64,000 nucleotides of DNA, taken from positions 1,549,204-1,613,203 of the forward strand of contig NZ_JAPNKE010000002.1 of assembly GCF_026626665.1 (NCBI RefSeq). Direction: 5' to 3'. Positions 4,890-4,956 of this stretch are shown piece by piece (the stretch's first letter is position 1; every line of letters starts with the position of its first letter). The notes beneath the pieces were generated by a model, which saw only the letters and a list, made by a program, of their open reading frames with translations, did no database searches and was not told where the DNA came from. The translations under genes were made by a program, and so were the position numbers. The DNA comes from Nannocystis pusilla. Its GTDB lineage: Bacteria > Myxococcota_A > Polyangia > Nannocystales > Nannocystaceae.

Positions 4890-4956
4890 CGGGGCATGTT
4901 CTCGCGGACATGGCCGATCGCGCCTGTCCTCCTGGGCATGTTCCTGCAGACAGGCG
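4890..4956. repeat. Five-unit 14-bp motif array overlapping the start codon and signal-peptide codons of the TAXI-channel gene.
   Basis: ggggCATGttctcgcggaCATGgccgatcgcgCCTGtcctcctgggCATGttcctgcagaCAGGcg. Confidence 0.8.

Follow-up and report, generated by a model that had tools for sequence, protein, structure and literature searches.

A gene-end repeat family in Nannocystis, with one array lying over the signal-peptide codons of a TAXI-channel gene

Background

Repetitive extragenic palindromic sequences and bacterial interspersed mosaic elements (REP/BIME) of Escherichia coli, Pseudomonas putida and other bacteria are taxon-specific, high-copy, GC-rich palindromes that are found alone or grouped, with at most a dozen or so to a cluster; they are extragenic, lie near the 3' ends of genes and are frequent between convergent genes (PMC1525189). 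They have been proposed to serve as partial terminators, as mRNA stabilisers and as sites for proteins such as gyrase and integration host factor (IHF) (bioRxiv 10.64898/2026.03.23.713779); copies within operons tune the ratio of upstream to downstream expression, and REP325, located within the yjdMN operon of E. coli, reduces the transcription that proceeds into the gene downstream of it and also stabilises the upstream mRNA (bioRxiv 10.64898/2026.03.23.713779). The subject of this study is an array of 14-bp palindromic modules at positions 4883-4952 of a 64,000-nucleotide stretch of Nannocystis DNA (RefSeq assembly GCF_026626665.1, contig NZ_JAPNKE010000002.1, positions 1,549,204 to 1,613,203 of the forward strand; this whole stretch is called the window below). 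The array lies over the 5' end of a gene for a TAXI-channel-RCK protein. The original prediction missed the main point, which is that the array belongs to a gene-end repeat family found throughout the genus.

The Nannocystis family resembles REP/BIME in taxon specificity, copy number, GC-rich palindromy and position near gene 3' ends, frequently between convergent genes. Its copy at the TAXI-channel gene departs from the extragenic habit, as it lies inside an open reading frame (ORF). The unit is 14 bp (5+4+5), with no linker and almost no indels, whereas the REP unit measures about 20-40 bp. It lacks both an asymmetric flank and a tetranucleotide of the GTAG type, which in REPs is recognised by REP-associated tyrosine transposases (RAYT), and, the unit being symmetric, its orientation is undefined. 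A further difference is that the Nannocystis arrays are conserved at orthologous sites across species.

Several other systems share single traits with this family. Rickettsia palindromic elements (RPE), reportedly described by Ogata et al. in 2000, are said to be repeats translated inside genes, and the likeness is that of a dispersed palindromic repeat translated within a gene without destroying the protein; RPE, however, are mobile insertions of 100-150 bp in many genes, whereas here the modules are 14 bp long and only two long coding copies were seen (in the TAXI signal peptide and inside an IucA/IucC gene). Mycobacterial interspersed repetitive units (MIRU), reportedly the subject of Supply et al. 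in 1997, are likewise tandem repeats at gene junctions of operons, overlapping the flanking stop and start codons, but their units are 40-100 bp long and non-palindromic, with about 40 loci per genome. Unniraman et al. and Mitra et al. are said to have described non-canonical intrinsic terminators of GC-rich bacteria, that is, hairpins without a U-tail, tandem or bidirectional. The resemblance is that the arrays, too, form stable hairpins rich in GC immediately behind stop codons, on either strand, and that canonical hairpin-plus-U terminators are absent from the region; the sequences of such terminators are normally idiosyncratic, whereas the Nannocystis copies share one sequence and one spacing and have stems without covariation. 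Tandem arrays bound by protein dimers include the metboxes of MetJ, the heptads of omega and the iterons of ParG/ParR. These, too, are short palindromic or repeated units of strict periodicity in arrays of 2-10, a likeness that suggests cooperative binding, yet they lie in promoters or plasmid centromeres and are few per genome, while the Nannocystis arrays lie behind stop codons and are many. Finally, the DNA uptake sequences (DUS) of Neisseria and the uptake signal sequences (USS) of Pasteurellaceae are dense motifs of about 10 nt, specific to a genus or family, which often form terminators as inverted pairs (PMC1852404); tandem periodic arrays and strong exclusion from coding sequence are traits of the Nannocystis family and not of DUS/USS.

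The array and its elementary module

The array at 4883-4952 has a period of 14 bp and consists of five head-to-tail modules of the form TGYCC-N4-GGRCA, which create CATG where they abut. Module 1 (4883-4896, TGGCC-GTCG-GGGCA) has one mismatch to the consensus, and its final base is the A of an ATG at 4896; module 2 (4897-4910, TGTTC-TCGC-GGACA) is kept in the orthologous loci L001 and L002. The 3' arm of module 3 (4911-4924, TGGCC-GATC-GCGCC) is degenerate, and therefore the next junction is CCTG and not CATG (Pro for His). Module 4 (4925-4938, TGTCC-TCCT-GGGCA) is a perfect inverted repeat that matches the consensus exactly. Module 5 (4939-4952, TGTTC-CTGC-AGACA), the last recognisable one, closes the array on a GGRCA-type half-site, like other arrays of the family, and is followed by GGCGT. 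Read in the GGRCATGYCC register, the units are GGGCATGTTC at 4892, GGACATGGCC at 4906, GCGCCTGTCC at 4920, GGGCATGTTC again at 4934 and the degenerate AGACAGGCGT at 4948.

In the window, which is 71.6% G+C, GGRCATGYCC with at most one mismatch occurs 36 times, as compared with 11.2 +/- 3.3 in dinucleotide shuffles, and the module TGYCCNNNNGGRCA / TGYCC-N4-GGRCA occurs 9 times against 0.34 expected. The matches are phased at exactly 14 bp; seven in-register arrays of two units and four of at least four units are present, where simulated windows give 0.07 and 0, respectively. The five-unit array that had been proposed over the start codon and signal peptide is thus confirmed as a 14-bp-period array, far above what shuffles and simulations produce. 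The family is dispersed over the 64-kb window in at least 11 arrays, the others being located at 192, 419, 7864, 8634, 17577, 22846, 25184, 27266-27317, 34352, 37179/37260, 40507 and 56052.

The spacing counts below are taken from 563 kb of pooled Nannocystis-like DNA. Profiles of the array edges show that the first half-unit is TGYCC and the last is GGRCA; it follows that the basic building block is the 14-bp inverted repeat TGYCC-N4-GGRCA, with CATG arising where two modules meet. Arrays consist of 2-8 modules, head to tail. Spacing is close to invariant: within the module, TGYCC and GGRCA are separated by four nucleotides in 271 cases, by three in 5 and by five in 4, and at the junction GGRCA is followed directly by TGYCC in 260 cases and after one nucleotide in 1. 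The 4-nt spacers are approximately random, except that they avoid beginning with A and ending in T. The flanks of the arrays contain no conserved additional motif and no tetranucleotide of the GTAG type; the unit is symmetric and measures 14 bp. Some arrays have identical adjacent spacers, a sign that slippage occasionally duplicates units. Spacers mostly differ from one another, and even so there are almost no indels. Among the very rare departures from strict 14-bp phasing is a pair of perfect inverted-repeat modules at 37260-37288, which has a 15-bp period (one extra junction base) and lies in a convergent gap, with weaker units nearby at 37179-37216.

Readings of the array as other known elements were set aside. 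A CRISPR locus does not agree with a period of 14 bp and spacers of 4 nt, since CRISPR repeats measure 24-48 bp and have spacers of similar length, and a sigma-54 promoter, a pho box and CsrA sites were rejected on geometry.

Position of the arrays relative to genes

Gene contexts were assigned with a simple gene predictor based on G+C at third codon positions (GC3), which matched the pipeline gene calls on locus L001. The pooled DNA contains 76 arrays of at least three units, of which 67 lie within 80 nt past a predicted stop codon. Thirty-seven of the 76 are in convergent gaps, 30 behind a single stop, one inside a gene and three near a start only, with five unclear; none occupies a divergent gap. 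Measured from the stop codon, the arrays lie at a median of 6 nt, with a peak at -3 that represents TGA stop codons that double as the first half-site (TGACC-N4-GGRCA). Loci of this last kind include L011 (7907-7920), L019 (5444-5457), L021 (3344-3357), L041 and L043. In the two loci that were not selected for arrays (the window and L002), arrays occur in none of the 13 divergent gaps but in 5 of the 10 convergent ones, and pipeline gene calls agree on the placement in L001, L002 and L004. Arrays that lie behind stop codons, often between convergent genes and never between divergent ones, are gene-end elements and not operators. Distribution, taxon specificity and palindromy make the identity of the family as a REP/BIME-like gene-end element, and its placement, well supported.

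Individual arrays of the window follow the same pattern. Four units at 8634-8689 begin 1 nt past the stop codon of a CAP-domain gene, in the convergent gap with a DUF1579 gene. Six units at 17577-17656 lie between a convergent TPR gene (end 17569) and a PD40 gene (stop 17727), and there the hairpin of units 1 and 2 is followed by TTTTT. The four units at 22846-22897 fill a convergent gap of 58 nt, and the five at 40507-40572 abut and overlap the stop codon of a minus-strand gene (40565-41119).

A two-unit array at 7864-7887 contains ATG 7868 of the CAP-domain ORF, and the same is seen in L002. It was not retained as a second example of an array lying on a start codon, since genomes disagree on the 5' end of the CAP gene: in N. 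exedens and in relatives further removed the gene call is longer by 120-150 codons, which makes the array internal, and in L003 the array comes after a lipoprotein signal peptide. The candidate start ATG (56057, minus strand) of a DUF4215-repeat protein gene (54207-56057, minus strand) sits in the two-unit array 56052-56075; the same gene contains 96-bp tandem repeats (about 6.8 copies) at 54888-55533. The sole other long array seen in coding sequence has 4-6 units, lies inside an IucA/IucC siderophore-synthetase gene (L001 6809-6888, L002 4468-4519) and is kept between N. exedens and N. pusilla.

The array as part of the TAXI-channel gene

The gene at 4896-7219 (plus strand) encodes a TAXI/NMT1_3 domain (E=2.8e-24), followed by a transmembrane/pore region and an RCK part. 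The closest relatives of its product come from N. exedens, at 93% identity, and from N. pusilla, at 87%. Homologues run continuously through the TAXI, pore and RCK parts over about 775 amino acids and bear out the earlier identification of the gene. In the window the frame is split (4896-6494 and 6272-7219) by the loss of a C from a C-run at about 6401 (AGCCGGGG in the window against AGCCCGGGG in N. exedens, 6395-6410), which is either a homopolymer error of the assembly or a real pseudogene. The DUF1579 gene (8602-9147, minus strand, or 8688-8882, minus strand) shows an apparent frame change near its 3' end, where the Pfam match is in one frame and the coding signal and the orthologous stop are in another. 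Two apparent 1-nt frameshifts within 3 kb suggest an error-prone assembly.

The upstream gene (3934-4788, plus strand) has an uncertain start, with coding signal from about 4075, and a product of about 260 amino acids; a TrkA_N match below threshold (E=0.094) faintly hints at the RCK identity proposed for it earlier. The two-gene unit is kept in all ten orthologous loci, and all ten have an array or a decayed 14-bp remnant within the signal-peptide codons. Between the upstream stop and the array lies a GC-rich stretch of 94 nt (4789-4882, plus strand), which holds an in-frame insertion of 78 nt (26 codons) relative to N. exedens; in the latter the array begins about 12 nt past the upstream stop (compare L001 9972-9996). 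N. pusilla has instead an insertion of about 150 nt with a 52-codon ORF bounded by GTGA and TTGA overlaps (L002 9816-9974).

The ORF 4365-6494 contains in frame an ATG at 4896-4898, one base before the position first given for it, from which it reads MFSRTWPIAPVLLGMFLQTGVARAGE. From this ATG the signal-peptide coding region (4896-4967, plus strand) reads MFSRTWPIAPVLLGMFLQTGVARA followed by GE, as had been stated for the first 20 or so codons. By inspection, the signal peptide is of the Sec type and consists of a basic n-region MFSR and an h-region TWPIAPVLLGMFLQTGV, with predicted cleavage after ARA and before GE, ahead of the TAXI domain. Homologues conserve its position, its h-region and the cleavage motif, ARA before G(E/D). 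The array units encode the hydrophobic core in frame, and several are adapted to coding: TTC or CTC replaces TCC (Phe/Leu), CATGG gives Trp and not Cys, and CCTG gives Pro and not His. Comparison of the sequences shows this array copy to be translated as the core of the signal peptide, an overprinted repeat under constraint at both the protein and the DNA level. Its position inside the ORF arises because the TAXI gene starts at, or overlaps, the upstream stop codon, behind which arrays normally sit.

The choice of start codon

Two codons compete for initiation of the TAXI-channel gene. ATG 4896 stands at the junction of modules 1 and 2 and is the NCBI-annotated start in the N. exedens and N. 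pusilla orthologues; it has no properly spaced Shine-Dalgarno sequence, a GGGG ending 1 nt before it. GTG 4785-4787 (plus strand) overlaps the upstream TGA (GTGA), is in frame 37 codons before the ATG, and has GGAGAGG 4 nt upstream; no in-frame start exists between 4786 and 4895. The GTGAGGCG context (GTGA/ATGA) is in frame in nine of the ten orthologues. In six loci (L003, L005, L030, L031, L032 and L033) a GTG or ATG overlapping the upstream TGA is the likely start; it is annotated in five, and for L031 it is adopted here, as the signal peptide from the annotated ATG would be too short. In the same six loci the array or its remnant is within about 12 nt of the stop, which is the usual post-stop position of the family, but inside the next ORF. 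In N. pusilla, where the overlap codon is out of frame, a TTG with GGGAGG occurs ten codons before the ATG and is followed by Arg-Arg. Counting against GTG 4785, the 37-codon extension is rich in Arg, Ala and Gly and lacks codon-position periodicity of G+C.

GTG 4785 appears to be an alternative, and probably ancestral, start of the gene, and on these comparisons we consider the chances of ATG 4896 and GTG 4785 as the true start to be about even. A start downstream of the array, at 4938 or 4956, would remove the signal peptide of a periplasmic domain. Whichever of the two codons is used, and given that all ten orthologues have the array or its remnant in these codons, translation does not begin beyond the array. 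The earlier suggestion that the array was recruited as a 5' coding and initiation region thus stands for the coding part, which is translated and conserved as a signal peptide; the initiation part is uncertain on account of GTG 4785. A twin-arginine translocation (Tat) signal, suggested by RR-G-M-F in the N-terminal extension of the window, was dropped, as it is not conserved in L001, L002 and L004.

Distribution of the family among organisms

Scanning one genome per species (185,579 species) for three consecutive perfect units detected 24 loci, 23 of them in Nannocystis (12 in N. bainbridge, 4 each in N. exedens and N. radixulma, 2 in strain RBIL2 and 1 in a metagenome-assembled genome). The remaining locus, in Nocardiopsis (L023), is a simple tandem repeat of a 14-mer with identical spacers and was set aside as unrelated. 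A metagenome scan added 35 loci, 33 with Nannocystis-like G+C. Origin from a phage or mobile element was rejected, since 2.9 million viral contigs gave only 4 isolated two-unit hairpins, of lower GC content and unrelated. In the relatives L003-L005 (73-76% protein identity) the arrays are weaker and have CAGG/CCTG junctions, and they occupy the same kinds of sites; at some sites the presence of an array varies between species. By extrapolation, a genome contains about a thousand sites or more.

No Rfam family covers the arrays, and the searchable literature holds no account of REP-like repeats in Nannocystis or myxobacteria; GGACATGTCC turned up only in papers on p53 response elements, a coincidence of sequence. 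The repeat family is specific to Nannocystis and appears undescribed.

Sequence constraint and RNA folding

The intergenic array between the CAP and DUF1579 genes can be aligned over four units in the window, N. exedens and N. pusilla. All 16 of its 16 CATG columns are invariant; in the core as a whole this holds for 28 columns of 40, and in the spacers for 2 of 12 (three species, p=0.002). Between the TAXI arrays of the window and of N. pusilla, changes affect 3 of the 40 positions in the core and 6 of the 16 in the spacers (p=0.012), and the spacer changes alter amino acids. Cores that are kept while spacers drifted, with few indels, indicate that sequence and geometry are maintained beyond pairing potential.

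The modules are inverted repeats, and arrays fold strongly on both strands (z from -2.1 to -6.2). For 4888-4951 the predicted fold has -30.4 kcal/mol (z=-2.7), with the AUG at 4896 paired. Association of the R/Y positions between units is weak (odds ratio 2.3, p=0.057), and the commonest unit is not self-complementary (GGACATGCCC/GGGCATGTCC). CCTG and CAGG junctions, considered as compensatory pairs, proved to be mainly degenerate outer halves of terminal units, and that explanation was rejected. Canonical hairpin-plus-U terminators are at background level in positions 1-20000 (4 against 4.3 expected), and no array was flagged among them; sigma-70 promoters are at background level as well.

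Proposed role and alternative explanations

The explanation that we favour, with an even chance of being correct as a whole, is that of a REP/BIME-like gene-end repeat, overprinted in the TAXI-channel gene, read by a factor and acting as a boundary. Each module would be read sequence-specifically, most simply by a dimer on the two half-sites; a row of modules would form a boundary at the end of a transcription unit, and the strong hairpins of the transcript may help to form it. Such a boundary could limit read-through, protect the upstream 3' end, or both, as REP325 does in the E. coli yjdMN operon. At the TAXI locus, the array would reduce the output of the channel gene relative to that of the upstream gene or decouple the two, and AUG 4896 would be buried in a stem. 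This mechanism, whether a 3'-boundary hairpin, a protein site or both, is inferred.

Several observations weigh against this explanation or some of its parts. Within modules the R/Y positions assort independently (odds ratio 1.18); permutation of R/Y among units leaves the folding energy unchanged (-0.33 +/- 0.43 kcal/mol, 62 arrays); the RNAalifold covariation term is -0.12 (8 orthologues); and in one-sided contexts the sense strand shows no bias for G-U over A-C (49 against 47). These tests for selection on RNA structure were all negative or marginal, and no conserved structure is claimed; a purely RNA-hairpin role is thus not supported beyond palindromy itself. Most arrays lack a U-tract, the TTTTT behind the hairpin at 17577 being the single instance. 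Half of the convergent gaps counted above (5 of 10) lack an array. The gene contexts of L006-L068 rest on the GC3-based predictor, checked solely on the L001 gene calls, and these loci were selected for having perfect arrays. The in-frame arguments for GTG 4785 are soft because the assembly shows apparent 1-nt frameshifts. The absence of covariation, together with the strict spacing, makes it likely that the module sequence is recognised by some factor. This could be a dimer bound to duplex DNA, or else a protein reading the hairpin in the way that RAYTs read REPs.

The strongest competitor, to which we assign perhaps one chance in four, places everything at the level of DNA: a dimer on each 14-bp repeat, the dimers forming a cooperative row (about 120 degrees per module), with RNA hairpins irrelevant. 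The row might be a roadblock terminator, a supercoil barrier or gyrase-loading site, or a nucleoid boundary, and the TAXI copy would then be a roadblock inside a 5' coding region. Several observations suit this view: sequence identity, beyond complementarity, is conserved across species; the N4/N0 spacing is strict though the spacers are randomised; half-sites vary independently, without covariation; strand symmetry is full; and arrays start and end on whole inverted repeats. The 5+4+5 layout is the classic geometry of operators for helix-turn-helix dimers, such as the FNR box (TTGAT-N4-ATCAA) and the 14-bp operator of phage 434, and E. coli BIME-2 arrays bind gyrase. On the other side, no dedicated system of protein-roadblock terminators is known to have been described genome-wide in bacteria; unit duplication, seen as identical neighbouring spacers in some arrays, also yields strict periodicity, and a position behind stop codons is equally expected of RNA-level elements.

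A bolder and rather less probable proposal, which we put forward speculatively, is that a dedicated, sequence-specific dimeric DNA-binding protein docks in rows along the arrays and so labels the ends of transcription units throughout the Nannocystis genome. If true, protein would here provide the terminator, insulator or supercoil barrier, in a manner comparable to the Reb1 and TTF-I roadblocks of eukaryotes and unlike described bacterial systems, and the TAXI copy would be a roadblock in a coding region that gates expression of the channel against its upstream partner.

It is fairly unlikely that the repeat is merely selfish or neutral, growing by slippage or through a mobilising enzyme and surviving where it does least harm, with the TAXI copy tolerated. 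Arrays do fill gaps right up to stop codons, some are homogeneous with identical adjacent spacers, a sign of recent unit duplication, their presence varies between species at some sites, and the units in the TAXI gene are bent to the needs of the amino acid sequence; tolerance is also the argument that has been made for the location of REPs (PMC1525189). Orthologous arrays, however, persist from N. exedens to N. pusilla, being decayed in the relatives at 73-76% identity; cores are kept where spacers have diverged (p=0.002 and p=0.012, above); and indels are almost absent, which is unexpected for neutral DNA of such age.

We regard as very improbable that GGRCATGYCC is a genus-specific DNA uptake signal that collects in terminators in the form of inverted pairs. 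The high density of the 10-mer and its restriction to the genus would fit, and uptake sequences do sit in terminator hairpins (PMC1852404), but such sequences do not typically form strict 14-bp tandem arrays with as many as 8 units, nor are they typically all but excluded from coding DNA. Least probable by far is the other half of the original prediction, an operator or 5' untranslated region with the true start downstream of 4956: the palindromic units, their fixed half-site spacing (N4 271 against 5 and 4) and the location at a gene junction agree with it, but starts at 4938 or 4956 leave the periplasmic TAXI domain without a signal peptide, the array-encoded N-terminal peptide is conserved in homologues, and arrays of the family occur in no divergent promoter gap (0 of 13) but sit behind stops.

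Implications for annotation and evolution

At gene ends the arrays supply either strand with an ATG at 14-bp intervals and are thus a hazard for annotation, making start calls unreliable; the start of the TAXI-channel gene (4896 against 4785) is a concrete case of such ambiguity. Long and almost certainly spurious ORFs begin at array ATGs in the window (2989-4911 and 6755-8653 on the minus strand, 4910-6124 and 8652-9113 on the plus strand). For the question of hairpin versus reader, a small, strictly spaced unit at orthologous sites offers a cleaner system than the REPs of E. coli. In evolutionary terms, the TAXI locus is a clear case in which an ORF has overprinted a non-coding gene-end repeat and placed it under dual constraint as a signal peptide. 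Nannocystis is a producer of natural products, and the arrays may serve as native transcription-unit boundaries, or need to be respected as such.

Other features of the window

Two tandem genes for SrpI-like (family 2) encapsulin shell proteins with cyclic nucleotide monophosphate (cNMP)-binding domains are located at 50321-51733 and 51805-53064, both on the minus strand. The only Rfam matches of the window, to Sernc350, lie antisense inside these genes (plus strand, 51183-51685 and 52676-53163) and probably reflect conserved protein-coding sequence and not a small RNA. At 42442-42689, a unit of 121 bp is duplicated in tandem with 98% identity.

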